Part shown: in pieces, positions 1 through 35,208 of the stretch
Layout: the number at the start of each line of letters is the position of its first letter
Numbering within the stretch: the stretch's first letter is position 1
NCBI GenBank assembly: GCA_008632985.1
Contig: QPGO01000360.1
Span: forward strand, 1-41,025
Source of the DNA: Psammoneis japonica
Lineage: Eukaryota
DNA: 41,025 bases
Direction: 5' to 3'
Program-made: the position numbers and the translations under genes
The notes under the pieces: model-generated
The model's database searches: none
The model's input: the letters and a program-made list of their open reading frames with translations, nothing else
What the model was told of the DNA's origin: nothing

Positions 1-271
1 CATGACGGGTGAAAGCGTTGTTCGAAGCCACCTGAATGGAAGGAATCACAGGCAGGCCAAACGTCAGTGCTTTGAAAACGGCTGTCTTGCTAATAATTAT
101 GCAGCGGAAGCTTTATCTGAACGGATCGATTCGCTTGGACTGCCCAGGTGGAGGTGGAGAGAAAAGGCGATGCTGCTAGATTACGTTCAGGGAGGAGATT
201 GTAGTCCTCACACGAACGCCCTTTACGACGAGGCAAAGGCGATGCTGGAACACTACGAAAAGATGGAGCGC
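1..271 (+). CDS. Partial host CDS (zinc-finger-like HLNGRNH motif, then ...LEHYEKMER), cut by the LTR and open at the left edge
   Basis: ORF 2..322 reads plausibly to EKMER at ~271, then runs into LTR sequence. Base composition is normal. Confidence 0.45.
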
Positions 272-618
272 TGTGGGAAAGTAGCCGGAATTCTGGGATT
301 CGTCTGCACTTTCAGTGATTAAAAGCTGTGATTGCGACACAACAATCAATCAGTAACTTTATTGTGCCAAAAGTTGAGAGGTGACAATCAGTACGTTAGA
401 AAGATTATGAGCAGTTTTTATGAGCAGATGCAGCTGCCATCTAAAAGAAACGCGAAGTTAAACAAGCGCGAAGCTAGGAACAAACATCGCATTCGTGACT
501 CGGCTTCCGCGGGATTCGAGACTGAGCATCGCACACGGGGTTCGAATCTTGGATCTCTGATTTGAATCGTGGAGGTCCGATGTTGTTGTAAAAACATGCA
601 AATATGAATATTGTCACA
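272..618 (-). repeat. 3' LTR (347 bp)
   Basis: tgtgggaaagtagcc...ttgtcaca; matches 6422-6768 except for 10 substitutions. Confidence 0.95.
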
Positions 619-626
619 CTCCCTTC
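619..626 (-). other. Polypurine tract
   Basis: Minus strand GAAGGGAG immediately precedes the TGTGACAA start of the 3' LTR. Confidence 0.8.
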
Positions 627-661
627 AACAATGTCGGGTGGAATGATGACTCGAAAACGTC

Positions 662-3600
662 TTACCACTTAAGGAGCGATTTCCTGTGTTTAACGAAGAG
701 ATTCTGTGGTAGAGGTTTGGTGAAAATGTCTGCAATCTGATCCGCCGTATCAATTGGTAGGATTGATATGAGACCTTGCGAACATGGTCTTTAAAGTGGT
801 GGAGAGTGAGGTTGAAGTGTTTTGTCCGAGGACGCATCTTAGGCAATCTCGCGATCTCCAATGCTCCAGAATTGTCTTCAAAAGCCTTACAATGTACGAC
901 TGGTGTCTTGGAAGGGACATTATGACCGTGATCCATAAATTCTTGAATGAGGTTCATAATTGGGATGGCGCTTCGAAGACTTTCGAAAGAGCGATAAATT
1001 CAGCTTCAGTAGTGCTGAGCGCGATCTGAGTCTGTAGCTTGGACGTCCAGACAATCGGACATCCTGCATAGGTGATGACAAACCCAGTTCGAGATTTGGA
1101 AGTGCCAACGTCATCGGGTGCAGTCAGCTTATTCCAATTGCCCACAAAGTCCGCGTCGGCGTGAACTTCAAGGGACTTGTCCGTTGAGGGCTGTAGTATA
1201 ATACCTTCAGTTCTGGTTGACCTTAGGTACTTACAGAGCCATAGTACGGCTTCACCGTGAGAAACCTTGGGATCGGAAGAAAAGCGTGCGACTTGGTGCA
1301 CCGCGTAAGCGATATCCGGTCGAGTGCTCTTCTCCAGAAAATTGAGCTTGCCGATGATGGATCGGTAATGAAAGCTCCCTTGGAAAGCAGGCTCACTCAT
1401 ATGCCTGTGGAGGATCTTGGAGGAAGGAGCAGGAGTAGACTTATCTGGTAGTCTCTTTGGAATATTGGCCATCTCCAGTATCTGATTGATAAGGTGAGGT
1501 TGGGTAAGTTTCATTCTGCCGTCTGGTCGTGTCTCGACGTTGACACCGAGATAGTCGTCCAGAGCGCCTTGATCATCAATATCAAAATTCTCATCTCTGA
1601 TATCCTGTATCGCCTTGTCAATAGCAGACTTGTCAGGGGATGCAAAGATACCGTCATCGACATAATGAATGAAAATGACATTGCCACGAAAATACAGGCA
1701 CTCATCAACCGCCGATTGTACGAAACCAATCCTTAACAATCCATCACGTAAGTGTTCTTGCCATACTCTCCCTGCTTGCTTTTGTCCATATAAGTTCTTG
1801 AGCAACTTCAGAACATGAGTCTTATCATTGCCATATTTTGTTTCAATTCCTGCAGGTAACTCCATGTACATATCATATTCGATATCGGCATGCGGATACG
1901 CCAGAACGAAGTCGACTTGGCGTGTATGCCACTTCTTAAGAATGGCAATGATCAGTAGGAGCCGGATAGTGAACCAGAAGACCACGGCAGAGTAGGTCTG
2001 GAAGTAGTTGACAGCATACTCTTGCTTTCCGCCGTGCACATTAAGTCGGGACTTCCATTTGTAGACGGCTTGAGTCTTAATATCTCTTTTGCGCTTCATA
2101 GACCATACCGAAGGGAGAACATCAACATCGTCAGGTACGTCCTCTCTTGGAATGAGTATCCAATGTTTCCTTTCAATATGATCATTGACCTCCTTAACAC
2201 AGGCCTTGATAAATTCGTCTCTGTCAGGTTCACGCACAGCCTGATCAAAGTACATGGTGTCGGGGTCCGAGCTCGCCAGAAAAGAGATAGGTGAGTCCAT
2301 ATCGTCCTGCAGTTTGTAATCATCCTCGTGCATCGCATCATAATATGCCTCTGCCTCTGCATTGTAGGAGACAATGCCTTGAGCCCGTTGTAGTTGGCTC
2401 TCGCGCATTCTTTCGGTCGGGCGTCGTTGTCGGCCGGACCTGCTGGTACTGGGTTGACCCATAGTGCGCTGTGGCTCAGATGGTGCGTCAGAATCATCTG
2501 GAGGCGTGTATAGCATTTCATCATCCGGTTGGGCATTATCAAATGAGTCATCAGTGGTAGACGTGTCAGTGGGATGCAGCAGCTGAGACGGGACATCCGA
2601 ATTCGGCTCAGGTGGTTCCGTTGTGGTAGGGACTGATCCCTCAACCGGTACGTCACTTGATTTCCCAAAGATGTTAAAAGTACTCCTTGTTTTGAGTTGT
2701 CTGAAACCTGTAATGCCTTGCCATTGTGAGAATGTAGGAGGATTCCCAGCAGATGGACGAACAGTCTCAAAGAAGTCGTCAAATTGTACGTGAAATTGCG
2801 GCGATACGAGTCCGGTCTGCAAATTCAGAACCAAGGTAACTGAACCTGCGTGTCTTGTTGATGGTCCCAAATTGATTCCTAACCTTGCCCTTGGTCCCAC
2901 TTAGGCAGCCTACCTCCTCCCTGCAACCGGTTGTGCAAGGCGTAGACGGGACAGCCGAAGGTATGGTGTTGTTTGAGATTAGGCTGGACCTTGACGGACG
3001 AGAAACGTTCCAGCGGAGAAGAACCGTCCTCGTGATTCGGTAAGTGATTCTTGATCTCGTTTGAGTTCCTGAGAGCGCTTGGCCATAAGTTCAACTCAAT
3101 AGCCGTTGGCCATCTCACTTTTGCATGCAGGAGTTGCTTCCGAGATTGCTCTTGGAGGTCCCTTATTCTTTTCTCCGCGATGCCATTTTGGAAGTGGGCG
3201 TTGACCCCACAATAGGATATTGTTTGCTGTTGCTTCTTGACGTCTTGTATGAAAGCATTATCAGCAAATCTTCCATTGTCGGCGTGGCAGTGTTGAATAC
3301 GGACGTGCATCCGGCGTGCGAATGCCTCGAAAGCGTGCTTGGCTTCGAGCGTCTCGGCTGAGGTAAGTCCTTTCTGCAAATATATGTATCCCAATCCGCT
3401 GAAATGATCAACAAAAATTGTCGCTGCTCGATACCTTTGTTTCGTAGGTCTCCCTTTGAGCTGTGGGATCAATCCAGGAGTAGGACTCTCGAGCTGGTCG
3501 ACGGATACGGCTTCTCCAGGCGAAGTTGCCAAGTGGATTCGTCGGTTCCGCTTGGACTTGGAGCGCCATGGTCGTTTCGTCATGGCACCGTATAGGCAGC

Positions 3601-4918
3601 CGGCACATTTTGGGTTGTGTACCTTTGTAAGGCGTTTCGGTCGAATGCCTAGGGCGGCCAATAGCTTTATCATTTTGAATGACATGTGGCCCAGGCGGTA
3701 ATGCCAACGCAATAGTTCACCCTGGTCATCTGTGGCAGCAAGGGCGTCATCATTTGGTATGATGTTGATGGGTTCCGGTAAGTCCTGCTGTACCTCCGGT
3801 GTCGTGAAATCCCTTAGGTTTTCCTCGTCTGAGTCTGAACGACTTGCTCCGTCTGTTGGCTCAAATAAGACAGGAGCATCCTCATCAGTAGTGTTGCGTG
3901 CGTCTTGCGTCTCGGAAGGACGTGTCTCGGATGGACTTCTGAAGACGTCTGTATCAATTGCAGCCTCGTCATCATTCGCAATACTCTCGTCGTCTGGTGG
4001 TATGATGTGAGCTTGATGGGCCACGTGCTCGATAGTTTCGACATCGGTTTGTTCTTCGACAGCGGCTGCAAAGGTCCGGTATTTGTTGGAACCGGGTGCG
4101 GAGCGCATCTTGGCGACATTAGAGTTGGCGGACCATGGAATCAGGCGATGGTACTTGCGCTGGTCCCACATCAGTAATAGTCCATCGTCCCTAGTCCAAG
4201 ATACGGTTCCGTGAGGCTCTGGCGTGTGGTCATTAGCTTGTTGGCTCCATTGCTGCGGGCAGAGAAGACAATGAGGTAAGTCCGGTACGAGTGGCGCGTC
4301 TCGAATTTTGATGCTGTGCACTCGTCCCATGTCGTCCTCAATTGCCCACTGCACTGTTCCTTCTCCCTTAGCACGTAAGTAGCCCTTGACACCGAGTGCC
4401 ACTTTGTTGGATTTGCGAAGAGGACCAATGAAGTGTGCCTCGTTGTTGGACATGGTGCAGGAAGAATGTGAGTCGACACCGATTACGAATGAGTCCGAAT
4501 CGTAAGTGGGCTCCGTTCGCTCGGGACGGTATGGTGTGGTTGAGTTGTACGCTCTAACCGTCTTGTATCGCGTAATGACATAGTGAGCCTTCTTGGTGGC
4601 CACTCTGGAGCGGTGACCTGGCCTCGTCGACGTATGATACCGTGCGCAGTACCTCGTCGTTGGCCGTCGCTGGTAAGTCTTAACTCGTCTTGTGCCTAGT
4701 TCAGCCAGGATATGTGAGATGACCCACTCACCCAGCGTCATTACGGCATGTGACAGGCGCTTACACTTTTCTGAAGGAAGGGATAGCATCATGAATAGCA
4801 GTATGATCCAGATCGGTGCTGCACATTTCATGACGCCAGCGACCGCTATCAGGAGCACTGACACAGTGACGGCTATCTGCAAGGACAGCAGCAGTGTCAG
4901 AGTGAACCTGTAGAGCAG
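662..4918 (-). CDS. pol: Copia Pol polyprotein (protease, GAG-pre-integrase, integrase, RT, RNase H) with three 1-nt frameshifts (~2898, ~985, ~775)
   Basis: PR IGVDSHSS; WHYRLGH...CAGC; integrase VSVDQ / HADNG / QNGIAE; RT KNLYGQKQAG, YVDDG; RNase H DADF, LSTTEAEF, EDNSG, and QIADIFTKPL...LKW* after frame correction. Confidence 0.93.
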
Positions 4919-6347
4919 TCACTCTTGATCCACTTCGTTTAGGATGGTAGAGATAGCACTTGCGAAGGAGACTTTCTTGTCCAACGTGTCTGTGGATGGA
5001 GCAGACTGTTGCTTGCGGAGTCTACAGCCTTGGTTGCCCGGATCATCAGGTAAGTGTATGACCCAAGCAGTGTGATATGGGCACCAGTGATAGTCGCGAT
5101 TGTTGACGCGCTTGTGACAGTGCTGATGACCGTTCACTGTCTTCTTAGGAGCGTCCTCCTTAGGCGGGACTTTCTTCCAGGCTTCGTCCGCTTTCTGTCT
5201 CTGACGTGGAGTGGTCTTGGTCTTCCTTGACCGTGTGCTTCTTTCCTTGGTTGAACCAGCCTTGGCCTTCAAAGCTTTAGATAGCTGAAGGTTCTGATCC
5301 TTGATGGAGTCTACCTTGGCTGCAAGCGCGACGATTTGCTCTTCAGCCGGTGACAGTGCTCCCCACTTCGTCGTCGTACCTGTCCTTGTGTAACATGATG
5401 TACTTGACGAATGCTTCGTCAGCAGCTGCGGCGTGTCCTTTGAATAGATTCATGATAAGGTCGTCGCACTGCTCTCCTCTAGCTTGGAGTCCGTCAACGT
5501 TGAGCTTGGCGTACTTGTTGAACTCTTCGATGTCCGAGTCAACAGCCGCCATGCACGCATCCAGGCTTGACAAGTTCTCGCGGAAGTAGTTGGTGGTAGA
5601 GCGTGTGTCAACGATGGCCTTTTGCGTAAGTAGCTTGAAGAACAGTGTGCCGATTTGATTTCCATTGATCGTGTGGGAATCTATCTCAGCCAATGTCTTG
5701 TCTCTTGCTTCCTCCGTAAGGGATTGAGAGATCGCCTCGGCCATCTGCACATTGTTCTGTGCTTGTCGCGTAGGTAGATTCGCGAAGGTGTTCGCGTGGG
5801 TTCTTACATCCTGCAGAGTGAGTGGTCCGTACTCGGAGATGAGATCTCGTGGAGTTCCATTCGCGTCGGGAATGGCAAGCATGTCTCCTGCCCCTGTTTT
5901 CCATCCTGCCTCGGCAGCTCGTTGACTGAGTGTCTCACAAAACCGTTTGAGACCTTCTGAATCGCCGCTGAACTCGTGCGGCAGCGGCGCAGCAGCGGCG
6001 TTCCAAAATTTGAGGCCTTGCGATGTGCCGTAGTCGATGAAGATGTTGGGACGGTGTTGACCTGGAGTCAACGCGAAGATCGGCAGTGGTGGCACAGGTG
6101 CCAATGGTGGTCCACCTGGCGGGACTCCACCTGGTGGGACTCCGCCTCCTCCTCCACCTCCTCCGCCACCTCCTCCTGGAGGTGCACCGGGAGGAACGAC
6201 TGGGGGAGGTGCAGGAGCGACTGGAGCGGCTGCAGGAGCAGGTGCTGTTGCCGGAGCAGCAGCAGTGGTAGGAGCTGCAGCGGGTGCAGCAGCGGGAGCT
6301 GCAACAGAGGCAGCTAGAGCAGCCGCGGTTCGTGTCTGCGTGACCAC
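4919..6347 (-). CDS. gag: Copia Gag; start codon now GTG; internal deletion/frameshift near 5370
   Basis: Ala/Pro/Gly-rich N-terminus, FALTPG, IDYGT, QAQNNVQM, DIEEFN, KWGALSPAEEQIVAL (second frame) and a WCPYHTAWVIH zinc-knuckle-like motif. Ends at TGA 4921-4919. Confidence 0.88.
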
Positions 6348-6407
6348 AGTGACAGCAGAGTAAAGTAGAATCGAGAGCTTAAGATCGATTGACTTAACTT
6401 GTAGATT

Positions 6408-6421
6408 GCGCAGAGGAAGCG
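6408..6421 (-). other. Putative primer-binding site complementary to the D-arm region of tRNA-iMet
   Basis: Minus strand CGCTTCCTCTGCGC directly follows the 5' LTR. Plus strand GCGCAGAGGAAGCG(TG) resembles the recalled iMet tRNA segment GCGCAGCGGAAGCGTG. Confidence 0.6.
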
Positions 6422-6768
6422 TGTGGGAAAGTAGCCGGAATTCTGGGATTCGTCTGCACTTTCAGTGATTAAAAGCTGTGATTGCGACACAACAATCAAT
6501 CAGCAACTTTGTTGCACCAAAAGTTGAGAGGTGACAATCAGTGCGTTAGAAAGATTGTGAGCAGTTTTTGTGAGCAGATGCAGCTGCCATCTAAAAGAAA
6601 CGCGAAGTTAAACAAGCGCGAAGCTAGGAACAAACATCGCATTCGTGACTCGGCTTCCGCGGGATTCGAGACTGAGCATCGCACACGGGGTTCGAATCTT
6701 GGATCTCTGATTTGAATCGTGGAGGTCCGATGTTGTTGTAAAAACATGCAAGTGTGAATGTTGTCACA
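6422..6768 (-). repeat. 5' LTR (347 bp)
   Basis: Direct repeat of 272-618 with TG...CA termini. Confidence 0.95.
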
Positions 6769-9700
6769 CCTTTTTGTAGACGCCTGCAAATGGACGTTTG
6801 GTTCTCTTTGCTCTTTTGAGAAAGAACTGCGCATTCCGCAAGCCTCCTCGATGTTTTCAAGGGCATCGGCGTTGTTGAAAAACAAGAGATCTTGGCAATC
6901 GTTCTAGACCAGAATGAAGCTTGGCACCAATCTGACGATCCGTTAAAGAGCGTGCTGACAGCACAACTGCGTTCTGCCGCAACTAAAGTCTTGAAGCATT
7001 TGTTTTTCATTGTTGTTAACACATTGTCTTGGAAGCGCCCTTGCAACAAAACCAGGGCCCTGTGATGCCGGTGCGTGCGACATGCCAGGGTAGAAGACAA
7101 CACTGCGCAGTCAGTGGACTTTTGTTCATGAAGTTGAGGCCGTTGCCTTGGTCCACCTCAGCTTCTTGACGATCTCGCCATCTTCGCTTCGCGTTCAGAC
7201 ACCCAAAGCAAACCACACACACGACTCCACTGTTCTGCGAATGGGAAAAATGGGTGTCATTGCCAGTCAATTCAGTCATGCGAACAATGGCGCAAGGGGT
7301 GGTGATCTCGCGCAAACACGCTGTCTTGTGCGCTGAGTTCGAATGATGGAACCTGTCACCAGAATGACATTTGTGGGATGGTGCTGGGCAACTTGGATGG
7401 GTGACATTGATGGCATCAGGGGGGTGCCTTGAGCTGATCTGGGATGAGGAAATGCAAGACCCTTGAAGACAATTGTGTGCTGCCCTCACTGTGGCTGGGG
7501 GGGGGCTCATTCTGGCATTGACACACTGCTGAATTCTGAACATGGCTTCTGCCATTTGGCAGCTGGTTGTGCTGGCTGTCAGATGGAGCACCACTTTGGC
7601 TTCCTTGCCAAAAGCTGGCCACAGCATGACATCACAAATGGAGTGAAATGGCCATGCTGCTCAAGGCAAGGCTTGAGACACTTGCACTTTTTCTCTCATT
7701 CATGATCCACTGGAACCTCTCCTGGTGTCTTGGACTGGCAAAACTTTGCATCAGCTCCATGTCACAGGAACACAAATGTGAATGTCAACTGCTGCCATGC
7801 ATGTCTGTCTGTTCTGCAATTTGCAAGCAAGGACATCTCTGTGGTCTCCATCCATCTTCCATCTTTTTGCTTGTGGATGTTGTTGGCATTGCCTGAGCAA
7901 CTGTTGGTGGACTGGATCAGGCTTCTCATGGGTGCAACCAGGGTTGACCAACAAGGGTTTGTCATGCATGATGCTGTGCAGGAAGGCCCAGAGGAGGGTG
8001 GTTGGCACACTGGAGTGTTCGCCAACAGCAAGCTCAGTTCCAGTGCAGACAATGCAAGACACAAGGAAGGACAGCTGCTCTGAGCGCTCCCACCCATTGT
8101 TGCACACCATTTGGCAGCTTCCATGTTGTCCCATCACAAAACATGCCACACTGCATTGTGCAGTCTGCAGAGCAAGCACGGAAATGAACTCAGCCTTGGT
8201 GTTGGTTGAAAAAGCAACAACCACGTGGCTTCCAGTCCAATGTGACAGATTTGATGGCACTGGCATTTCAGCTGTGCATCAACCAGGACATGTTGCTCAA
8301 CCAGGACATGTCACACTCATTGCCAGTGGTGAGTTGCAATTTTGGCAAGGCCTTGGATGACCAAGAATTTTTGACTTGGCTTTTCTGCCAGCAGTCTCAT
8401 TCTTCCATCTGGCTGATGAAGCCACAAGCTTTGTTGGCCTCTGCTGCTGGCTTTGGCCATGGCTCGTTGCCACACCTGTCCCATGCTGACTGGATGGATG
8501 CCCAGATTTTTGTCTGGTGTGGCAAGTTGCTTCTCCATGAGTGCATGGCAGGCAGCCCATGGTTTGCCAGCCAGCTCACAAATGTGTGCAACACCTGTCA
8601 CTCTGAAAGCAATCTGCGGGCTTTTCCATCATGGAGAATGAGCCGTTCTGACACACAGCACTGCTGGCATCAGATCTGCCAAGTCCTGCACCTCCAGATG
8701 GTCATCATGTGATGGTCTCAATGGTGCCATGGGCAACAATGGCATCTTTGAGTTCAGGTGGTTTGGTGAACTTGTGAAAATGGTCTTCTTCTGGAATTCG
8801 TTGGCTCTTGTGTCCTTGGATTTTTCATCAACGTCATGTGACACCGTGTCTCCTTGGATTTTTCATCAACATCATCTGACACAAGAACTCACCCACCTTT
8901 TTGTGCTCAGAAATGTGCCCAACTGCTCTTCTTGGGTTCCATTGCAGCACCACTGCTCTGCCGCTGAATGCCTCCACTCTGCCACTGAATGTTTTGGCAC
9001 GCTGCTCAGGAGGCGTCCCTGCTCAGGTGTCGCTCACTGCTCAGGCATCTCCTCCTCCTTTTGAGTGGTCTTCAGGTTCACTTCAAGCAGCCATTCCTTT
9101 GACTGGACCAGCATTTTGTGCTTGCCCGCGTCCCGATCTAGCTTGTGCTGTAGACTGCGAATTCCAGAATGTTGGCACAAAGTGGAAATCCGGATGAGTC
9201 CTTTCAGGCGATTTTCGCACATGCAATGTTTTAATTGAACACATTATTTCGCGTTTGTGTCATCAGGATGCCATCACACACTTCATTTGGCAGATTCTTG
9301 ATGAAATGATGGTGGATCTCATGCTTCAAACGATGATTTTCTGTGGATGCTAGGCAGACAGTAATTGCAACAGCGCCAGCCACTAGAGCAAATGCAATTA
9401 CAGTGGCACTGCTGTCTGGGCATGTTGCAATTGTGTCATCAAGAACGTGTCGTGAACAAGGAAACGACGATGGATCTAATGCTTCGAACGACAATTTTCG
9501 GTGAACACACGCTAGAGTCATTGCAACAGCACTAGAGATGGAGCAAATGCAAATCCTGCAGCACTGTCTGGATGTGTCGCAATGATGACATTGCAGCACA
9601 ACAAAGCAGTCATGCACAATGGATTCCTAAAATCACACATTGCCAATGGCATTCCTAGAAGCAACGCGGCCGATGACAGAACGCATTTCATGCTAAATCG
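6769..9700. other. TpA- and CpG-depleted degenerate block of unidentified origin (decayed repeat or pseudogene)
   Basis: TG/CA-rich. TA is almost absent between ~7030 and 9130. Only Cys/His-rich junk ORFs are present. Confidence 0.7.
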
Positions 9701-9925
9701 CTGTTGAAAGTGAATCACCCTTTTTTGGAGGTTGTCTTTGAGTTAAGAGAAGGATCTGGAGGGGGTGGGGGGAGGAGGAACCTGCGGAGGCAACGGCGGC
9801 GGCGGAAGAGGCGGCGGCGGCGGCAACTGACGATCCCACGTTGTCTTCCCCAACAACTGGTTGAAGCAACAGCTTTTCCCTGTTGCTGGATCCTTGGCTT
9901 CCTTCCAGCCATGAGGAAGAAGCAA

Positions 9926-10015
9926 AGGAGGTCCAGCAGCAGCCTGAGCAGGCGCAGGAGGTCCGGCAGCAGCCTGAGCAGGTGCAGGAGGTCCAGCAGC
10001 AGCCTGAGCAGGCGC
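9926..10015. repeat. 30-bp coding tandem repeat x3 (PAQAAAGPPA)
   Basis: aggaggtcc(a/g)gcagcagcctgagcagg occurs three times. Confidence 0.85.
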
Positions 10016-11232
10016 CGCTGCATTCTGAAAAGTCGGAGCGCCGAAAGACGCTCCCGGCGGAACCTCGTTCAGCTGTTGCCGCTGGCGATCAAGGAGTGCC
10101 TGGTGTGACCAACAATGAAAGCATCAGATCAACACAAACAAATGAGATGTTTCAGGACACTTGCGTGCACTCACCGACTGCAAAATGCCTTGGTTGGCAA
10201 AACCCAGACCACTCATTCCACTGGCAATGGCGATTCTAGCGTTTGCAGATTCTAGCCTGTCCTTGCGCTCCTTGTCCTTCCTTTTGCTCTCTCTTTCTTT
10301 ATCCTCTTGCTTGAGTCTCGACTTGTTTTCCAGGAGAAAATTTTTTCCTTCAAGCACGACGGCTTCTTTCTCCAGCTTCATCTTCATTTCCTCCTGCCGC
10401 TTGATGGATGCATGCTTCATCTCTTCCAACTTAAATTGAGCCATTGCTCGCTCATGTTCCCTTTTCTCGGTTCTGTCTGCCACCAACTGCAGCTTCACAC
10501 GACTGTTCTCATGCTCCAAAGCTTGAAGCGACCTCACCTTGGCTTTACACTCAGACATCTCCGCATCTCTCTGAGCGATGGTGCGGCGGCACTCCTCTCC
10601 TTTTTCAGTCAGCTTGGCACTCTTCTTCTCTTCTGACAACAGATCCTTCCTGAGCTGGCTCAAACTCCGCTGTGCATCCGTCTTGACAGACTTCAAAGCC
10701 TGAAACTTGGCATCCACGCTTGCTGCTTTAAGCTCAGAAGTGGCCAAGCTCCGCTCCAGAGCGGTGGCTTTCCTCTTCGAAGTTGCCACCTCCTTCTTCA
10801 GCTGTGCAACTTCTTTCTTGGCATCTGCAATGATCTCCTTCTTTCCTTCCAGCTGCTCCACAACCTTGGAGAGCTTTTGTTCGCTGGCTCTGGCGGCCTT
10901 GGCAGCGGCATGGTCGTTGGCGTCAGCTTCTTCCTGCTGAGCGACGAGCGCCGCTTCAGCGCGCTCGAGCTTCCGCTGGATCTTGTTGAAGCTCCTTTCT
11001 GCAAGGGGGTTACGAGGTTTCGATCCCCCTGATTGCTTCGAACGCTTGTTGGGTGGACTGCGGTCGTCTTGACCATCAGCAGGCCTCTTGGGGGGCCTTA
11101 GAATCATCCTCGGCAAAGGCATGACGTTTTCATCATCGCCAGAAGATTCTTCGACAGCAGAAACGTCGCCGTTAACTACAGGATCACTGCCCGTTTCCTC
11201 CCAGGACGCTTCGTCAGCTTCTTCTGACTCAA

Positions 11233-11679
11233 CACCGCATCCACGGATTCACCAGGCAAAATTGGCAAAAGTCGGGTATGGCAAAAAGTGTGCATTTGGT
11301 CAAAATCGATCATTGAGTGCAAATGGTGGTGTCTTTAGGGTCTCTTTAGTGAGCCGAACACGCACATTTCTCATTTGACCATCACAGGTCCGTCTCATGG
11401 GGGGTGTCAAAACGTCGTGCTTTGACGCGTCTCGAGGATTAATCGTTATATAATGTATACAGCCATTAAGGTTATATAAAATTGAAAATTCACACATTAA
11501 AGCACGACGTTTTGACATCCCCCGTAAGACGACCTGTGATGGTCAGATAAGAAATGTGCGTCATCGGCTCACCAAAGGGACCCTAAAGACACCACCATTT
11601 GCACTCAACAATCGATTTTGACCAAATGCACACTTTTTGCCGCACCCGAGTGTTGCCTGGTGAATCCGTGGATGCGGTG
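11233..11679. mobile_element. MITE with ~190-bp inverted arms and TTAA target site (piggyBac-like)
   Basis: CACCGCATCCACGGATTCACCAGGCAA ... TTGCCTGGTGAATCCGTGGATGCGGTG; flanked by TCAA (11229-32) and TTAA (11680-83). Excision restores the host ORF. Confidence 0.88.
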
Positions 11680-20893: not shown

Positions 20894-21059
20894 GGTAACC
20901 TCAACGGAAGCAAGAAAAAATTTCTGCTGATTTCAGAAATGACTGCAGGGAAAACATGATAACGGCAAATTAACGGATAGAGCTCGAAGAGCTTGCAAAT
21001 CTTTCGACTTTCGAATCATCGTCTTGCTCAAGAATCCTCCCCCAGCCCGAACATCATTG

Positions 21060-22600
21060 TAGTTTCAATCTGGAGACAACCTGGTGGGCCACACCATCTG
21101 CCACCTGGGGCTTCCAGCGATCTCAGATGTCTCCAATAAAACAGGGCTGTGGCACCAGAGGCATCCGCAGAGGTGCGGGCTGGCTGTGCACAACGTCCCT
21201 CTCTCTCCCCGCTTTGTTTTCTGCCTTTGATTGTCTCCTCCTCTGGAGCAAGCTTTGACACAACAAGGCAGGATCCAGGCCACACTTGAGAGTGTAAAAC
21301 ATGTACCAGGAAGTGATTCAAAGGGTGTGTGCCAGCATCTCAATGAACTGACAGAAAAAACTTGGCTGCAACACGAGGACCCTCTGCCCTTCGGAGCTGG
21401 CAGGAGGGAGCGGAGTGCAGCAAAGCTCTGTCAGGGGGGATTTTTTGACATTTGACACTTTTGTGGGTGTCTGGTTGTGCAGAATGTGACCAACTTTGTG
21501 CAATGATGGCACCACAAGTGTTCCGTGCTGTGTGGCTGGGAGTCCTCCACACCCCTCCTGTTTGTGAAATTTTCATGCCAAGAAAGACATGCTCCAGCTG
21601 TGGATTGATGGGGCATGCAAAAAAACATGTGTGCATGCACCCAAAATTTTTGCATGGTCACCAACTTGGGATCAAAGTTGTGAGTGGAGAGCATTGTTTC
21701 ATCCATTTGGAATTGTCTTGATGCACCAAGCAGCAGCAACAAGACCCGCTGCACGCAGCGCACCAAACAAGCACAGAGCGGCTCCTCATTTCTCCCATTT
21801 TCATTCTTGAGCCAAGGGTGGGGGGAGGCATGTCCCAGGTTTGTCCAAAATTGCCATTGTGATGTTCAACAAGGCCACCACAAGTGCTCATTTTTGAACA
21901 CAAAAATTGTTCTCATTTGTGCTCAATCTTGCACAAAAATGGGACACTGGGTGTGGCACATTGATGACGGCAGTCATTGATCTTTTTCAAAAATGCAGTT
22001 GTCCAGTGTGGGACTCCAAATGCATGATGTTGATCACTCAACACAGGAGAGCACAATTTTAAAGCAAGTCTCATGCTGGCATGCCTTTGCAGCACAAACT
22101 TGTTGTGGCTTGTGTTTTTCCCCTAGACAAAGCCCGGTGAAAAAGTCAGAAAAACCATGCAAAACATGAGCTGTCTGGCCAGCCAAGCTCAAGCCAAAAA
22201 AATTTGCATGCATCTCAACACAGAGGTTTGTTGAACTTGAGAGCCAAGTCTTGTTCATTTTTGTGGTCATTTGGTGTGTCAACAAAAACTTGTGCACATG
22301 ATGCTGCAAACAATCAGTCGTTGCAGGGAGAGTCTGCAAAATAACACACAAATGTGAAGGCATGCTTTCTTGTGTTACACAAAAAGCACTTGGAGCCATT
22401 GACAAAAAGCTTTGTGCCATCAAAACTCACAAAAGAAACTTCACACACTGGGTGGCACTTGAGGCTCTGCACAGAGCAACAAGTGTCTCTTGCACAAGTC
22501 ACCATGGTCTGTGGTGTGTGGCTGTTTTTTTTGACAACTTCTTGAAGCTTTGCTGCTGCTTTGCAAGTGGCACCCAATCAACAATGTGAAGCAGATGTGA
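21060..22600. other. TpA- and CpG-depleted degenerate block, possibly DNA-transposon relics
   Basis: Abrupt switch to TG/CA-rich sequence. Weak VLHTPP...GHAKKHV resemblance to a Tc1/IS630 transposase C-terminus at ~21540-21630. Confidence 0.55.
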
Positions 22601-23583
22601 CACATGCTTTAAAGGAAATGACAGTGTACAGTGTTTTCCTCATGATTGCCAAAAAATGGACCTGTTGCATTCACAGCGTTTTGCCAGGTTTTTCATGCAT
22701 CACAGAGAGTTGGCAGCCAGATGAAGTCACCAAAGTGGATCTGCATGACACAGAAGCAACTGCAGAATGGGTCAACTTGGGTGCATCCTCAGACTCATTG
22801 GGATTCCTGGCATTCAAAGCTTGCAACGCAAGGCCCCACTGCAGTCTTCATCACAACGAACTCCAACCCAAAAGTGGAGGACTCTGTGATGTTCTGCCTC
22901 TTAGAGCAGTGCAAGATGGGTGCCCGCTGGATGAATGTCAGGATCCCAGTGTGGGACCTGCACACGTCACACGGCATCCAGTGTGATCAGCACTCACAAA
23001 ACAAGTGGCAGTCATGCTGTTCCCATGCACTTCCGGCACATTCAGCGGCAATGGTTCAGCCGTGCCGGGGCAGAATTCCTCTCAATCACATTTTGTGAAA
23101 TGACTCTCATCAAAGATGGGCTCAGTGTTGTCAAACATGCAAAAATGTGGAGCACCTCATCCAGATGTCCTGCTTGTGGTGCCACAAGGTGGGACAGCAA
23201 CAAAAATGTCAATGCATCCCACACTTCAAAACTGCCCATTGGAGCACCCCAACAAGACCTTGGTGACAGTTGACTGTTTTGGCATTCAACTCAGGTGAAC
23301 TGTCCAGTTCAGGTCTGTGTCCTGAGCTCAAGGGTGTTGATGCCTTTGTCAGAAGACACCTGTCAGTCTTCTTAACCTCTAGCTTGACATCAGCTAATGC
23401 CCTTTTGATGCACAAGTCAGAGGACATAGCCCAGCATGTCTTACCATCTGCATCAGACAACTGATGCTTTCTGATTTGTGCACCCAGGTGCTCTTCAGGT
23501 TCACAGACACTTCTGTCATTCAACGTGTACCTAGAGCTCATGTAATCCATGACCTTTTGGGGTTCATGGCCGATGCCAAGGAC
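22600..23583 (-). pseudogene. Relic RT/RNase H of a second Copia family
   Basis: VLGIGHEPQKVMDYMSSRYTL, EPEEHLGAQI, WAMSS, GHRPELDSSPEL, NCHQGLVGVLQWAV, HTGILTFIQRAPILHCSKRQNITESSTFGLEFVVMKTAV. Confidence 0.85.
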
Positions 23584-25304: not shown

Positions 25305-25469
25305 TTTATGCACGCAGCTGTGCCGAAGTGGAATAAAAGTTGATGGCGGAGGGCAGAGTGCAGAGTGACTAAAATTGAAAATCCACAAAACCAAAAAAAT
25401 CCAGCCACACCGCGGGGACGTTTTTTAGGACGGTTTGGCGAAATCCAGTTGATTTATTTACCGTGTGGA

Positions 25470-27110
25470 CTGTCTTCTCCCGAATCTTGTCAATCTGTTG
25501 GAGCATCTTTGCCATCCGGTGAGTCGCAAACACAATTGCAAACACAGGAACTTGACCCATGCTCTCAACATGATGTTCATTTTGCTCAGACGGCAGCCGC
25601 GAAGCTCCGAGGTTGTTTTGCCTTTGACCAGCACATCCCCAGTGCCAATCATTGGAAGGTGCACTCAACAACCTCCCAGACCTGGGAGAGCCACCGATGG
25701 CAGAGACCAAGAAGGTCTCTGACTTCCTGGAGGCTGACAGAAGAAAGTGTCATGCTGGGGGGTGGCAACCAGGCCAACCTCTCCATTTTTGAGCTGCATG
25801 ATCAGCACATTGCACAAAGACTCCAGAGTTGACAATGCGAAGAGCTGTGACTGCTCATCAGTGCAGTGGCCAAGTTTGAACTGAAGCCAGGAAATGAGAG
25901 TGAGATGAACAGCGTGTTGTGTGTTGGCAGCAACAGATGCCAATTTAGACAAAGAGGCATTGGAAAATGTGAGCAATTTTCACAACATCAAGCTGCAACA
26001 AAGACCAGATGTGCACGCAAGCTGCCCAAATTTTGTTCACAATTTTGGCAGCTTTTTGCAACTCAAGAGCTGTCAAAATCATCTGATCACTGACAAAAAT
26101 CAAGTGAAGAAGCCACAGCTGTTTTAAAGACATTTGACGAGTTGAAAAGCAAGCAAGAGCAGTTGAAAGCACTGCCTCAACTCAACAACTGTGAAAACAA
26201 TGCAGCTGTTTTGCACACTCCAATGTGCACTCTTTTCATTGCTGCACGGCCTGTGTGTGCCATGCATTTTGACTATGAAGACCTCTGAAACCACCACAGC
26301 TTTGACACCAGCTCAGAAAATTTGCACGAGGCACCAAGTTTGGCAGGCTCTGGGCTTCAAGATTTTGGGTGCTGGCCTTGGCAGAGGTGCAACTCAAAAA
26401 AGGTGGCACAAACAAATGCTGTTGGCAGCTTCAACACACATGCATTGCAATGTGTGCATCATGTGACTGTGCCAGTGCAAGCTGATGGTGCGCACAGGTG
26501 TTGGAGCACAAAAGCACAGCAGCGAATCTGACTGTGGCTGCGTTGGACCCAGCTGAGGTGTCAAGAGTTTTTGCTGAACAGCAGAGCCCACTGGGCTTCA
26601 AAAGTGAGAAGAGTCCATGGCTCTGTCTGAGAGTGAAAGAGATGGCATCAAGCTGCCGCTTGTTTTGCTGATGTGTGGGGGAGAAGGGCCTGTGCAGCAG
26701 ATGATGGGCGCTGTGGCGCACGCCAACAGAGAGCACAGAGCTGTTGCTTCCGTGCTGGTGAAAGAACAAAAGCAGAAAATGCACCAAGTGGCAACCAATG
26801 GACAATGACCAAACACAAAAAAACAAGCACCATTTGGGGACATGTGAGGCCAAGGTGGGTGCCACAATGTGCAAAAGCCCTTGAGCCAGAGCCAGAGCAG
26901 TGTGGTGCTTTGACTGTGGTGGCTGGGCACGACAATTGAGAGCCTCTGGCAGAGCTGGCTGCACCTTCATTCCCCCTTCTGCTGGCCACCTCCCCGCTTA
27001 TTTTGTCCTTTCAGCTAGAAATGGGTGTCAGATTTGGTCAGATCATTGCTGCACTTTTCCCTTCCATCTGAGAAGTTGCTCTGCTCGCAAAGCACACCCG
27101 CATGCATAGA
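25470..27110. other. TpA- and CpG-depleted degenerate block, probably a decayed transposon
   Basis: TA is nearly absent, with sharp compositional edges next to normal genes. No confident protein match. Confidence 0.6.
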
Positions 27111-29220: not shown

Positions 29221-30300
29221 TCAAGTTTTCTCTAGAGTGATTAGAGAGTCTATGGTATATTGGAAGGGATGCGTCTGGGGAAATGTGTGGCGGAAGGGTC
29301 GCGCGAAGCGCGCTAGGGGATGGGGAGAAAAAGGGTGGACCGAGAGTACGGACAGACGGTTGAGAGGAGGAGTTGGTAACAGCAGGGTGGCGGAGGAGGA
29401 AAGCTTGATGCGTAGAAAGATGGGTGGAGAGAGCAAAGCCGAAGTTAAGACTGAGGATTTGGGAGGCCCAAAGTGATGGTGTTGAGGCGTGATGTGAAGA
29501 GCCGAAGCGGTCTTGAGAGAGTTGTTTCCAGGCCCCGCGTTGGAGTTGGCAAGGAGATCGGAGGGTGCGAGGAGTGAGTTGGTGCAGGCGGAAAAGGATG
29601 GCTGAGAGTTGGAAAAGGAGGCAGGACTTGTCCAGGGTGGTTTAGGAGGAAGGGGTGGCATGGGGGAGGAAGTTTTGGCAGAGGTGCCGAAGAAAAAGGT
29701 GTTGAAATGGCAGCCGATGCCGCCGAGGTGGTCGAGGATGAAAGGGAGAAGGAAGAGACCGGCTTGGTTGATGGCGTCAATGATGTTGGATCTGTGAGTG
29801 GATGATGCAGAGCAACCAAGGAGCTTGTCCCATGTGCTGCTGAGGTGAGCCTTGTTGAGTGGGTTTTCAGGGACAGGCAAACCAGGTGCAGGAAGCGGGG
29901 CAGCTCTCGAGAGGCAAACAATCGCGTGGCAGGACAGAGGTGACAAAAAGCGTTCGCCAAAATGACCGGGACATCGGGGCATGTCTCAGGATGGCACAAA
30001 AGCAATGCCAAATGGAAACTTGGCTGTCACATTGAATGAAGGCGAGAACCACGTCTTTCAACATGTGAACGAGAAAGATCAGATCGAAGCGACTGAGCCT
30101 GTGCAGGTCGATCTAGGGCCCCAGCTGCCGGTGATGTTGACGAGAGTTGTGAGATGTGATCGTGCACTCTTTTGCCAACCAACCTGTGGGCAAAAGAGCA
30201 CCACACTCCCACAGGAAGTCAGACCAACCGGAGGTGTGGGAGCATGAACAACACGGTTGTTTGGCTCTTCAACCCATCCACCATCACCCCAGAAGCAACC
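29221..30300 (-). mobile_element. 3' fragment of a non-LTR retrotransposon (CRE/RLE-like), degenerate
   Basis: LFLLPFILDHLGGIG and, after a frameshift, RFGSSHHASTPSLWASQILSLN resemble recalled C-termini of diatom non-LTR ORFs. TA loss increases toward 30300. Confidence 0.5.
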
Positions 30301-30306
30301 TAAGAA

Positions 30307-33300
30307 TGGATTGTGTCGGGATCTGCAATCCTTTCAACAACTGTGTCAGTTCCAACAGAGGGAAGCACAGTTGTTCCCGCCATCCCTGCTGGCTCCGGTG
30401 TGAGGTTCAGTGCCTCTGACACTCGGTTGACACAAAAAGGTGTGATTGGGTTCACCCTTTGCTGGCAGCAGATCAACTCATGCATCAGGCACTTGTTGGT
30501 TTGGGTTGTGGCTGTGCAAACAACACCTGTGATGACAAATCAATCAAAAGCATCATGTGGGTTGCACCTGCAGCAGATGCCACTGTGTGCATCGACTGTG
30601 ATGGCGATGGATCATTTGACGACTCTTTTCAAGCTTTGGAGCTCTGGTCAATCAAAATCTCTGACAACTCAGATGCAGACATGACTGGGGCAACTGCATT
30701 TGCTGCTGCTGGTGGTCCTGATGACCCAACGGTGGACATCACAGTTGCTTGGGACAGAACCCCTTTGTTTTGCATGTTTTTCAGAGACTTGCTCATTGGA
30801 CCTCAGAACAACTGCACCCCCTTTGCCAATGCTTTTGGCTGGAAAGACATCGGCTCTCCTCCAGGACATTGATGGACATGGAAAGGCTGACTTGGGTGAC
30901 TTGTTGTTGCGCGCTGTTTGAGTGGCAAACACCGGAAGAGTTGGTGCACTGACTGGTGGCTGGAATGTCACAAACTTCTGCAATGCCATGTTGGATGCCA
31001 GAGACTGCATGGCAAACACTGCCATGTGCAATGATGGAACTAAAAGGTTTCCATCCAAGACAAAGCATCTGGAACTCCCTTCCCTCTTGGGGGGCTAAGG
31101 TCTGACCAGTCCGTTGATCTTGGCCACTGAAGGGGCACATGAAATGACATTCAAAGTTGCACAAAGCAAAACATTGATGATTTGGAAGCAGGCGTGGATC
31201 AAATTTCCAGTGCTGGAGAGATCAATGGAAACAAATCTGATTGGTTTGAATCTGCAACCCTGCTTGATTTTAATCCAAACATTGAGCATGATGGCGCTGA
31301 TTGTCCCAGATCAGAGTCTTTTGGAATGCAACAAGAAGATCCGGTGACACATTGCTGCAACATGATCAACCTGGAGACACCCAGTTGAGCAGTGTCAAAG
31401 TCTCAGATGCTGTTGCAAGCCTTGTGCTCCGACGGCATTCAGCCCAGGCAGCTGGCAAGTGCTTGCATTCCAAACTGACGTTGAACGCAGTCAATTCAGT
31501 GCTGCCACAGCATCAAGGATCACAAACCACAGAGATGGAGAGAAATGATTGTTGATCAATTCATGGACCCTGTCACATCATCTGATGCTGCCGGTGCAGA
31601 TGCGCTCCTTGCACCAACAGCAAATGACAAAAATTGCGCTGCCAATGAAGACACCCCAATCCAAGTTGCTTCCCCTGAAAATCTTTCGAATGACAGTGAT
31701 GAGAACTGGAACAATGATTTGATGGTGACTGTCTTGATGGCACCTGCAAATGGATCTCTTGACCAGAATGCGCCAATGTGGACTTCAATGGATTGGATTC
31801 TCACACGTGCAAGGCCTGCAACCAAAACGGCCCATGTGACCAAGCGACAGTCACGGTCATTGTCAAGGGGATGAACGATCAACCCGCTGCTCTCAACAAC
31901 TCAATCGTGACTTCAGAAGACACTCCAGCAACAATTGACATTGCAGACAATGATCTTGACATCAATGGTGACCTTGTCCCATTCAAAGCTGCTGTTTTAA
32001 CCAGGCAGACAAACAGGACAGTGGATGACAACAGCAATGGCACCATTGCGCACACCCCACATGAAGACTTCAATGGTGTTGATGCGTTCGCACACCACCA
32101 AGTGCGAGACACTGACAGCAACTGCACCAGTGCAACCACAACTGTTGCACTTGATGGTGTGGACAATGCACCTGTCACTTTGGGTGACTCCATCATGACT
32201 CCAGAAGACACTCCAGCAACGATTGACATTGCAGACAACAATCTTGACATCGATGGTGACCTTGTCCTCAGCACAGCCGCTGTTTTAACCGGGCCAACAA
32301 ATGGATCAGTGGACAACAATGGTGATGGCACCTTTGTGCACAACCCCCATGCAGACTTCAATGGTGTCAACATGTTCACATGTCAAGCGTGCAACACCAA
32401 TGGTGACTGCGCTGCTGTGACCACAACCATTGCAGTTGATGCCATGAACGACGCACCTGTTGCTTTGGATGACTCCATCACAACTCCAGAAGACACTCCA
32501 GTGATGATCAACATTGCAGACAAGAATGATCTTGACATTGATGGTGACCTTGTCCCAAGTGCAGCTGCTGTTTTAACTGGGCCGACAAATGGAACAGTGG
32601 ACAACAACGGTGATGGCACCTTCACACACACCCCAGTTGAAGACTTCAATGGTGTCAATGCAATCAAATGTCAAGCGCGCAACACCAACAGTGACTGCAC
32701 TGCTGCAACCACAACAACTGCAGTTGAGGCCATGAACAACACACCTGTTGCTTTGGACGACTCCGCCATGACTCCAGAAGACACTCCAGCAACAACTGGC
32801 ATTGCAGACAATGATCTCGACATCAATGGCGACCTTTTCCTGAGCACAGCTGCTGTTTTAACCAGGCAAGACTTTGACGGCAAAGATGCACTCACACATC
32901 AAGCAGTGCGCACAATGCCAACGGTGACTGTGCACTGCAGCAACTGTCAATCTTGTTGTGCTTGGTGTCAATGATGCACCAGTTGTTGTTGTGGATGCAG
33001 TGAGCACCAACAAGGACACTGCGGTGGATGTCAACACAGTCACCAATGCTCCAGAGGATGTTGATGGCAACCTTGATGCAACTTCTGCAACAATTCTGAC
33101 ACCACCTGAGAATGGCCAGGTTGTCAACAATGGCGACGGAACATTTGCATGCACTCCGGACCCAGACTTCAATGGCAAAGACTCCTTCACCTGCCAAGTG
33201 TGCCACATTGACCAAGAATGTGCAACAGCTGCTGTCACCATCACTGTTGAACCTGTCAATGACCCTCCTGTGGCACAGAATGGCAAATTTGCCATGGAAG

Positions 33301-34490
33301 AAGACGATGTGCTTGACACTCCGATTGGCGCAATCTTGCTGAATGACAGTGATGACAAAAATGAACTGAACCAATTGTCTTTGGTGGTTCTCACATCAAA
33401 TGCGTTGAACGGAGCTGTGGTCAATCAAGGAGATGGAACACTTTGGTGCACTCCCAACCCTAATTTCAATGAAGTTGATGAACTCACCTGCGCCATTTGC
33501 AACACTGGTGGTCTCTACAACAGTGCCCTTGTCACAATCACTGTCAGCTCCATCCTGGATCCACCCATTGCCCAGGACCTTGGACTTGTCATTGACCAGG
33601 ATGCAGACTTGTTTCTTTCCGAGGCGGCTGGAATCAAGCAATGTCTTTCATGCAAGGACGGCATGTTGGGATGCACAAACTGTTCAAACGCTGGCATTTC
33701 TGATGTGGACACACCACTCGGCACCTTGATGATTTCCACAATGGAAAGCACGAGCCAGTTTGGTGGAGACATTGATTCCACATCCAATGGCAAGTTTGCT
33801 TGTGAGCCAGCAGAAGGCTTTGCCAGCATTGATGACGCTGAGTGCTTGGTTTGTGATCCTGAGGCAGGGTGTGCATGACACTGGAATGATCAAGATGATT
33901 GTCATGCCTGCAACCAAGCACAATTGTTCTGTTTGCTGTGGAGACTGGAGTCAGGTGGTCACTTTTACATCTCCAACAATTTGGGTTGAGAGAGTGTGCA
34001 GATTAAAGAGTTTTCTCTCATTTTTGAGCACCTGACCAGCGGTGGCACATGCGCTTCCGGCACTTGGACGCCATTCGAGGTGGTTGGCTGCAAATTTGAC
34101 CATGCCACAAGGACCGTGCTTTGCTCAAACAACATGGTTGTCAAATTTCAGCAGTGCAAGGCCAACACACACATCCCACCAGGTGCAGAGACTCATGCCA
34201 TGGCATTGACAGATGTTTTGGCAGCATGTCAAGCAATTCAATCAAGAGCATCATCTCTTTGAGCATGGAGGGAGCAAAAGGTGAACTCAGGGATCCAAGG
34301 GAACCCAACGGTTGCATTTCCCAAGGCAGATGCTCCAAAGGTTGCAGCAAAGGCAAGGGCAAGGGTTGAAAATGCAGAAGAAGTCTCAACTGATGCTCTT
34401 CCTGCACCCGCTCCAACTCCTGCCAGCAAGGGCAGAAAAGGAAAAGCAGTGAGAGCCGGCAAGGGAGGAAAAGGAAAACAAGCAGCATGA
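30307..34490 (+). pseudogene. Hypermutated gene for a large extracellular protein with tandem ~95-aa cadherin-like / Big_9 (tandem-95) Ig domains and a GK-rich tail
   Basis: Repeated NDAPVALDD..TPEDTP..I..NDLDIDGD..LTGPTNG.V.NNGDGTF.xTP..DFNG.D.FTxQ units at a ~285-290 nt period; ends GKGGKGKQAA*. Has stops and frameshifts; the 5' limit is approximate. Confidence 0.85.

Positions 34491-35167: not shown

Positions 35168-35208
<41 letters not shown>

Follow-up and report, generated by a model that had tools for sequence, protein, structure and literature searches.

An intriguing question raised by contig QPGO01000360.1 of the Psammoneis japonica assembly GCA_008632985.1 is what process could make the two long terminal repeats (LTRs) of a single retrotransposon differ by transitions only, mostly at TpA and nowhere at CpG. 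The contig, whose 41,025 nucleotides are referred to here as the window, carries near its left end a Ty1/copia element on the minus strand, with the 3' LTR at 272–619, the internal gag-pol region at 620–6421 and the 5' LTR at 6422–6769. Nine of the ten differences between the LTRs are best read as footprints of a regionally targeted hypermutation that converts TpA to TpG or CpA, an explanation to which we assign a probability of about 0.8. The changes run away from TA, they follow a tetranucleotide site rule, and the LTR pair obeys the same rule as four blocks of the window that have been stripped of TA and are bordered by shoulders, in one of which the 5' LTR lies.

The two LTR copies align without gaps over 348 positions at an offset of 6150. 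The alignment contains 10 mismatches, all of them transitions, and it reproduced every coordinate and base given in the original prediction. Seven of the differing sites (354, 361, 393, 407, 420, 604 and 610) have TA in the 3' LTR where the 5' LTR has TG or CA. At the neighboring sites 365 and 366 the 3' LTR reads GTGC (364–367) and the 5' LTR reads GCAC (6514–6517), a double site that would fit an ancestral palindromic GTAC, belonging to the class RTAY, that was hit once in each LTR. The earlier count of nine of ten differences at TpA therefore stands directly for seven of them and includes the other two only if the ancestral GTAC is accepted. At the tenth site, 602, AAT in the 3' LTR corresponds to AGT in the 5' LTR, an ApA context. 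The 5' LTR has the G or C base at 9 of the 10 sites and has no TA that is private to it. Each LTR has 19 CpG dinucleotides at identical positions, all unchanged, as the original prediction had said, and CpG-to-TpG or CpG-to-CpA differences of the kind left by the decay of methylated CpG are absent from the pair. The assignment of 272–619 as the 3' LTR was also correct, given that the Ty1/copia coding region is on the minus strand.

A transition can interconvert TA with TG or CA at only 21–23% of LTR positions, and the probability of observing at least eight such differences among ten is about 1–2e-4. TA was lost at 8 of 15 sites, compared with 0 of 19 for CpG (Fisher p = 3.5e-4), and the losses are asymmetric, with 8 in one LTR and 1 in the other (p = 0.039). 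Control pairs had ordinary spectra, unlike the LTR pair. Twelve terminal-repeat pairs were found among related metagenomic elements, of which six had no mismatch and one (L006, 85% identity, with gaps) was excluded; the five remaining pairs contributed 36 differences, including 11 transversions and 3 changes of the TA type. A host inverted repeat contributed 12 differences, with 4 transversions and 3 of the TA type.

The LTR difference is the visible edge of a larger TA-destroying feature, since the window contains TA-free blocks of the same type. The observed/expected ratio (O/E) for TA is 0.43 for the whole window and 0.40 for 7000–41025. A uniform host bias against TA, which the latter value might suggest, is ruled out by the 1-kb profile, in which normal and TA-free DNA alternate: TA O/E is either 0.42–0.89 or 0.00–0.11, with a few intervals at block edges at 0.20–0.33. 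The 1-kb intervals that are low in TA have CpG values of 0.15–0.71 and CA/TG values of 1.29–2.16. About 12.5 kb of the window lies in TA-free blocks, and the pooled blocks (10.9 kb counted) have O/E values of 0.03 for TA, 0.30 for CG and 1.81 for CA/TG, compared with 0.60, 0.96 and 1.18 for normal host DNA in the window. All remaining dinucleotides are equal in the blocks and in normal host DNA, which indicates that only the self-complementary pyrimidine-purine steps were converted to CA/TG. The TA loss proposed originally is thus upheld in its direction, but with normal host DNA at 0.60 it has to be described as regionally targeted and not as a uniform, genome-wide decay.

Block 1 has a core at 7092–9138, in which 2,047 bp contain no TA at all (CpG O/E 0.25, CA 1.96, TG 1.78). 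The core is preceded by a shoulder flank at 6770–7091 (TA O/E 0.23, CpG 0.91) and followed by a mixed continuation at 9139–11010, where TA-free runs (9745–10236 and 10730–11010) alternate with DNA at a TA O/E of 0.18–0.30. Block 2 (21305–23372) has 7 TA in 2,068 bp and a CpG O/E of 0.18, with a sharp TA border at 23372/23373, and block 3 (25460–26998) has 2 TA in 1,539 bp, and the CpG density of its leftmost 150 bp is still normal. The largest, block 4 (29644–35678), has 17 TA in 6,035 bp and a CpG O/E of 0.37, and holds a tandem-95/Big_9 gene at 31485–33875.

The 5' LTR is shoulder DNA of the first of these blocks. TA O/E falls stepwise toward block 1, from 0.66 (620–5400) to 0.48 (5401–6421), 0.27 (5' LTR), 0.23 (6770–7091) and finally 0.00 (7092–9138); the CpG O/E of the same segments is 0.91, 0.89, 1.08 and 0.91 before it reaches 0.25 in the core. 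The partly hypermutated 5' LTR retains 7 TA and all 19 CpG. At the opposite end of the element, the 3' LTR (14 TA, 19 CpG, TA O/E 0.51) is near the common state of the family, and the flank to its left (1–271, TA O/E 0.58) is likewise at or near normal. Margins of 150–330 bp that are free of TA and normal in CpG occur at other borders as well (25460–25600, 29447–29775 and 35442–35678), and from such margins it follows that TA loss is wider or faster than CpG loss. The original claim that TA loss is faster than, and separate from, CpG decay agrees with these borders and with the values of 0.03 and 0.30 within the blocks.

The LTR pair, the blocks and an independent metagenomic copia element all follow a single site rule. 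Among the adenines of the LTR pair, those changed were 5 of 7 in TAT and 2 of 5 in TAC, compared with 0 of 11 in TAA and 0 of 5 in TAG (TAY versus TAR, Fisher 6.7e-4). When counted as tetranucleotides, the LTR losses are 3 of 3 RTAY (in addition to the GTAC presumably hit in both LTRs), 4 of 6 half sites, which have one TAY strand, and 0 of 5 YTAR. Per kb and compared with normal DNA, the blocks show survival values of 0.006 for RTAY, 0.020 for half sites and 0.258 for YTAR. YTAR accounts for 20 of the 27 surviving TA of the blocks and for 122 of 844 in normal DNA (p = 1.7e-11), and GTAC occurs once in the blocks versus 71 times in normal DNA. L066 and L067, two microbial-mat metagenome contigs that are 99.75% identical and come from separate assemblies, carry a related copia with His or Cys at 8 of 14 covered conserved-Tyr columns, a TA O/E of 0.31–0.44 and a CpG of about 0.8. 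Their survival values relative to the other 76 loci are 0.95–1.04 for YTAR, 0.39–0.67 for half sites and 0.02–0.09 for RTAY, with GTAC being the most depleted tetranucleotide (0.02). The remaining 22 of the 24 relatives with long open reading frames (ORFs) keep the conserved Tyr.

Two further observations concern these metagenomic loci. L066 and L067 differ from each other at one Tyr column, where one has Cys and the other His. L060, L053 and L078 have a CpG O/E of 0.25–0.36, TA of 0.40–0.46 and CA/TG of 1.4–1.55, and L060 keeps 19 of 20 conserved Tyr; their pattern resembles CpG decay against a background low in TA, and not TA hypermutation.

The direction of change is fixed by the tandem-95 gene of block 4. 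When 125 homologous repeat domains were aligned with the five units of the window's gene, two conserved columns had Tyr in 102 of 118 and 106 of 114 of the homologous domains. The window's units have H, H, H, C, C and H, C, C, C, C at these columns, so that 10 of 10 conserved TAY codons have become CAY or TGY. A second line of evidence comes from copia pol, for which 24 related ORFs from the metagenome loci served as the outgroup. At codon 3288 the window has TGC (Cys), against TAC at 73% of the family read depth and Tyr in 23 of 24 outgroups, and at position 1664 a minority copy has CAT, against Tyr in 24 of 24 outgroups. None of the 25 departures that the window shows at 274 conserved columns is His-to-Tyr, Cys-to-Tyr or Gln/Trp-to-stop. 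For the LTRs, polarity was sought in other copies of the family. Run X1, the best run, yielded 1216 contigs that aligned to 1–6421, of which 294 did so at ≥99% likeness. One of these contigs (record 1; depth 684.7, about 7.5 times that of the flank) covers 574–1121 with a single mismatch to the window, so that, of the TA alleles at 602, 604 and 610, two or more belong to the common junction between 3' LTR and internal region. For at least two of these three sites, then, the high-depth contig contradicts a family consensus of TG/CA, and the direction from TA to TG or CA that was originally proposed is borne out by the Tyr codons of the block and by codon 3288.

These data also bear on the reverse polarity, in which the 5' LTR would be ancestral and the 3' LTR would have gained TA by C-to-T changes at CpA/TpG, as in fungal repeat-induced point mutation (RIP). 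We regard this as very unlikely. Although C to T is the commonest mutation generally, 8 hits in 38 TGY sites would be a plausible light dose, and the window copy has private TA alleles at 2676 and 6031, every polarised case in the window goes the opposite way and the TA alleles at 602–610 are on the contig of about 7.5-fold flank depth. Moreover, the DNA adjoining the TG/CA-type LTR is TA-free instead of TA-rich. RIP predicts an excess of TA, with a high TpA/ApT and a low (CpA+TpG)/(ApC+GpT); with TpA/ApT at 0.63 and the second index at 1.22 for the element (0.33 and 1.40 for the 5' LTR alone), and a TA O/E of 0.03 in the blocks, no such excess is present and the polarity is opposite.

Selection against TA, for example through avoidance of a nuclease or of a TA-targeting transposon, could in principle take the place of a mutation bias, and TA is indeed under-represented in most genomes, including the normal host DNA of the window. 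It is the least likely of the alternatives considered here. Replacement of all ten conserved Tyr and block ORFs devoid of Tyr amount to damage that protein selection would not allow, and TA is depleted as completely outside ORFs as within them, whatever the frame.

Several observations weigh against regionally targeted hypermutation. The change from AAT to AGT at site 602 lies outside TpA. Polarisation by other copies is limited to sites 602, 604 and 610, and is partial even there, with the seven sites from 354 to 420 outside its reach; the high-depth contig is also compatible with the window copy being a master whose altered 3' U3 passed to its progeny. Among the 40 listed of 801 variant rows, none of which is within the LTR, the TA type makes up 17 of 37 transitions, versus 22% expected, which speaks for hypermutation, but assignment by majority allele gives about 5 apparent TA gains and about 5 losses (approximate values from allele fractions). 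Together with the two private TA alleles of the window copy, these counts indicate either that changes between TA and TG/CA run both ways at a low level or that the majority rule misleads. In addition, the block sequences come from the assembly alone, a foreign origin is indicated for one block only, by its bacterial-type repeat gene, and no deaminase domain was found in the 88 window ORFs scanned.

A different account of the asymmetry is that the two LTRs are not sisters and were brought together by ectopic recombination or gene conversion between a copy in normal DNA and a copy at a block edge. This possibility, which would add to hypermutation and not replace it, falls somewhat short of even odds. 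The LTRs have the termini TGTG...CACA, and no matching target-site duplication of 4–6 bp is present at the ends of the element (left ...GAGCGC, right CTTTTT...). The two LTRs may therefore not be sisters, and the lack of a duplication suggests that the element is a recombinant of two copies; intact diatom copia elements lacking the duplication have been described as recombinants (Maumus et al. 2009, PMC2806351). The window copy also departs from every aligned contig at 6 of the listed rows in 5968–6219, yet has only 1 mismatch in 548 nt at 574–1121. These departures and the missing duplication make it possible that the 5' part came from a copy at a block edge, although 5968–6219 is of low complexity and poorly covered, and its divergence may be overstated. 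If the LTRs are not sisters, the 8-versus-1 asymmetry would reflect different locations and histories and not decay after insertion. Such an origin bears on the asymmetry but not on the spectrum, as it leaves unexplained the nine of ten A:T-to-G:C changes in TA context under the RTAY rule.

Editing during retrotransposition, whether A to I on RNA by an ADAR-like enzyme or deamination of cDNA, is even less probable than RIP-like gain. A preference for U before the edited A would resemble ADAR, and antisense transcripts of the element could form double-stranded RNA. However, both LTRs are templated from the same U3-R-U5 in the established retroviral scheme, and RNA editing thus cannot make them differ; the strand of the changes does not suit late single-stranded cDNA, and the signature is shared by DNA outside retroelements, namely the flank and the bacterial-type gene. 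Two other candidates were rejected. Transcription-coupled damage by the antisense RNA is incompatible with the coverage of run X2, which ends at 6235, before the LTR, and errors of a polymerase-eta-like enzyme at WA are incompatible with hits at 5 of 7 TAT, which are too dense for copying errors.

What mechanism might produce such a pattern? We propose that A would be changed to G at 5'-T-A-Y-3' on either strand, with palindromic RTAY sites going first, sites with a single TAY strand going next and YTAR sites being almost spared. The process has run to completion in the four multi-kilobase blocks, where a slower CpG loss accompanies it in the block cores, and TA is lost for several hundred bases past the part that is poor in CpG. 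It is in such a shoulder that the 5' LTR of the copia lies, together with 322 bp of flank, so that this LTR has lost 8 of 15 TA and no CpG; the 3' LTR resides in normal DNA and would have taken a single hit, at the shared GTAC. Targeting could be provided by a chromatin or foreign-DNA mark that spreads over the borders. The chemistry may be enzymatic deamination of adenine on DNA (A to inosine, read as G), by analogy with the proposal made for Bigelowiella natans; we regard this as the likeliest chemistry, though at somewhat less than even odds. The preference for the RTAY palindrome may point instead to a symmetric, site-recognising step.

The closest known system is that of B. natans. In its mutation-accumulation lines, two integrated viral regions received 231 of the 302 new mutations, and 230 of these 231 were A>G or T>C, each of them at a TpA; the rate was raised about 1000-fold over the background, a rise confined to some of the lineages (Mettrop et al., bioRxiv 10.64898/2026.01.13.699255). 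According to the same preprint, the genome has 124 clusters of windows poor in TpA and rich in CpA+TpG, the authors propose an ADAT2-like DNA adenine deaminase, and ADAR, too, is cited as preferring U before the edited A. When the cut-offs of the preprint are applied to our window, 11 of 41 1-kb intervals qualify, including runs of 3 (21001–23001) and 5 (30001–34001). Both systems show near-exclusive A>G/T>C change on TpA that gives TpG/CpA, and both are regional and not genome-wide. Genes not derived from eukaryotes are among the targets in B. natans, and the bacterial-type repeat gene of block 4 may be such a target here. They differ in that B. natans is a chlorarachniophyte and the host here is probably a diatom, and in that erasure is complete here (2 kb without TA), whereas the main viral region of B. 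natans retains 3.3% TpA. The CpG loss in the cores, the ranking of RTAY over half sites over YTAR, and the presence of an LTR retrotransposon in a shoulder go beyond the B. natans account as given in the preprint, in the main text of which the words CpG, trinucleotide, LTR, retrotransposon and tyrosine do not occur.

The B. natans data are also relevant to whether the pattern is an artefact of assembly or base calling, caused by modified DNA or by polishing with reads from other copies. The best run contains only 0.65 of the sampled words of 1–7200, and the single-base deletions of the window copy at 775, 983 and 2892 may be long-read errors. An artefact of this type is nevertheless about as improbable as RIP-like gain of TA, since L066 and L067 carry the same signature and site rule in separate assemblies, TA-type variants (including that at 3288) are found among the X1 contigs themselves, and the B. 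natans lines were, by the account of the preprint, sequenced on Illumina. A strand-specific miscall, moreover, would be expected to leave mixed TA/CG calls and not clean CA or TG together with CpG depletion.

Comparison with better-known systems places TpA hypermutation in a distinct position. It resembles fungal RIP in being dinucleotide-specific, restricted to transitions and regionally confined, and in wrecking genes and mobile DNA, but the chemistry is opposite: RIP changes C to T at CpA and makes DNA rich in TpA, whereas here TpA is destroyed and CpA/TpG accumulate. The TpA-removing process is in this sense the mirror image of RIP. Unlike in RIP, repetition alone is not the trigger here, since the interior of the multi-copy copia is nearly untouched, having lost 1 of about 16 conserved Tyr. 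Decay of 5-methylcytosine at CpG likewise ends in TpG and CpA, and the block cores have undergone it (CpG O/E 0.18–0.37), but it has left no trace in the LTR pair and its zone is narrower than that of TA loss. G-to-A change by APOBEC3 and A-to-G change by ADAR are likewise deaminase-type, context-dependent hypermutations directed against mobile or viral nucleic acids. These enzymes target cDNA or RNA, either ahead of integration or in the course of it, so that both LTRs are affected alike, whereas here resident chromosomal DNA is changed on both strands and DNA other than retroelements is included.

In the literature searched, TpA-removing hypermutation was found in one 2026 chlorarachniophyte preprint, and there was no report for diatoms or other groups. 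The complete erasure of TA, the RTAY rule, the co-located and narrower CpG loss, and the spill-over into a retrotransposon LTR are new here. Finished blocks, an LTR and shoulders at an early stage, and a site rule shared by a probable diatom and a microbial-mat metagenome suggest a broader genome-defence system of protists. Stated in full, this idea holds that a stramenopile genome, probably that of a diatom, has a defence that erases adenines at RTAY/TAY on both strands in marked chromatin until no TpA or Tyr codon is left, that is coupled to the decay of methylated CpG but outreaches it, and that spills over a few hundred bases into mobile elements. We consider this rather doubtful as a whole, slightly more so than the proposed deaminase chemistry. 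If it is true, the TpA hypermutation of a rhizarian alga is widespread among protists, and the palindromic RTAY preference points to symmetric adenine modification or a dimeric enzyme, and not to a loose single-strand deaminase. RTAY oligonucleotides as substrates, Rho(TpA) segmentation as a genome scan and counts of Tyr to His/Cys as a polarity test are available as handles.

A practical consequence concerns the dating of LTR retrotransposons. The original prediction warned that LTR-based ages would be inflated, and this is the case, as setting aside the changes in TA context reduces the 10 LTR differences to 1. The apparent divergence of 2.9% drops to about 0.3% without these sites, an inflation of about ten-fold, and LTR dating and neutral-rate estimates would be badly biased in genomes of this type.

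The minus strand of the element encodes Ty1/copia domains (RVT_2, 9.7e-38; gag_pre-integrs, 8.2e-9), with the integrase upstream of the reverse transcriptase. Protein relatives are 45–70% identical; the ones that bear a taxon name come from diatoms (Attheya and Epithemia, 45–48% identity), and the best matches, at 60–70%, are unnamed metagenome proteins. The protein collection searched contained no copy above 70% identity, and thus other copies from this genome are absent from it. A degenerate 40-nt LTR pattern had 2 matches in the window and 0 in metagenome contigs, no usable LTR homology to the 78 related metagenome loci was found, and Rfam gave no match. The summed depth of X1 contigs is 91 in the flank, 2840–3504 in the LTR bins and 578–3021 inside the element, and depths so far above the flank mark the family as multi-copy. 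Run X2 had no coverage at 431–1505 and 6236–6421, and no contigs of run X3 aligned.

Relative to the high-depth contigs and the majority of copies, the gag-pol region of the window copy is frameshifted. It lacks single bases at 775, 983 and 2892 and has an indel variant at 5369–5424, which together leave gag-pol in pieces; these lesions are either real decay or long-read assembly errors. In relatives (L001, L004, L008 and others), gag and pol are in one frame with a single stop codon between them, and the window has a TGA at the corresponding place (4919–4921, minus strand), a comparison of sequences that suggests that this copia clade relies on read-through of a stop codon and not on frameshifting.

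The element also appears to be transcribed in antisense. Contigs of run X2 skip 12 segments of 69–108 nt at 1700–5800 of the window that are bounded by GT..AG on the plus strand, antisense to the copia ORFs, and the donor is GTAAGT in 8 of the 12, which indicates a multiply spliced antisense transcript without a long ORF (the longest has 127 aa). GTAAGT occurs 11 times in antisense and once in sense in the element, 11–12 times versus 0–1 in its closest relatives (L001–L004 and L031), and 168 versus 34 times in all 78 loci; 3 of the 11 positions in the window are in register with L004/L031. We know of no description of such a spliced antisense copia transcript, and no literature search aimed at it was made.

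The TA alleles may matter for the function of the LTR. In sense orientation, those of the 3' LTR (393–427 and 354–366) read CTGCTCATAA twice plus AATAAA, and their counterparts in the 5' LTR (6543–6577 and 6504–6516) read CTGCTCACAA twice plus AACAAA. Judged by these motifs, the promoter LTR may have lost TATA-like and poly(A)-signal-like elements to hypermutation. That the 3' LTR TA alleles form CATAAAAAC and AATAAA is a weak argument, and it was not used as evidence.

The genes of the blocks bear the marks of the process. The 47 block ORFs of at least 110 aa have 0–2 Tyr each, most of them none. The tandem-95 repeat gene (Big_9/cadherin-like, plus strand, Pfam 2.4e-43) has 38 relatives, including named bacterial proteins, and 0 Tyr in 398 aa, and it was likely acquired horizontally and then inactivated. 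A Pfam scan of the 47 ORFs found no other convincing family (the other 44 had none, apart from one sub-threshold match to the WW domain), and two block ORFs searched against viral contigs had no match. In TA-free DNA, for example at 7700–8400 and 32850–33450, TGA is the sole stop codon left, and long overlapping ORFs run on both strands in several frames. Such spurious ORFs would mislead gene callers and lead to over-prediction.

The host genes of the window are long uninterrupted ORFs; the genome of B. natans is intron-rich. For a host ORF with an AAA_16 domain, the nearest eukaryotic cluster has Bacillariophyta as its commonest phylum, and a host ORF with an HA domain has one weak match, without a close relative on record. 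Overall, a diatom or some other ochrophyte is the probable host. Just past the right end of block 1, an inverted repeat of 127 nt (11264–11390 and 11531–11657, 91% complementary) encloses an AT-rich spacer of 140 nt; it may be a small mobile element, or it may mark the boundary of a domain.

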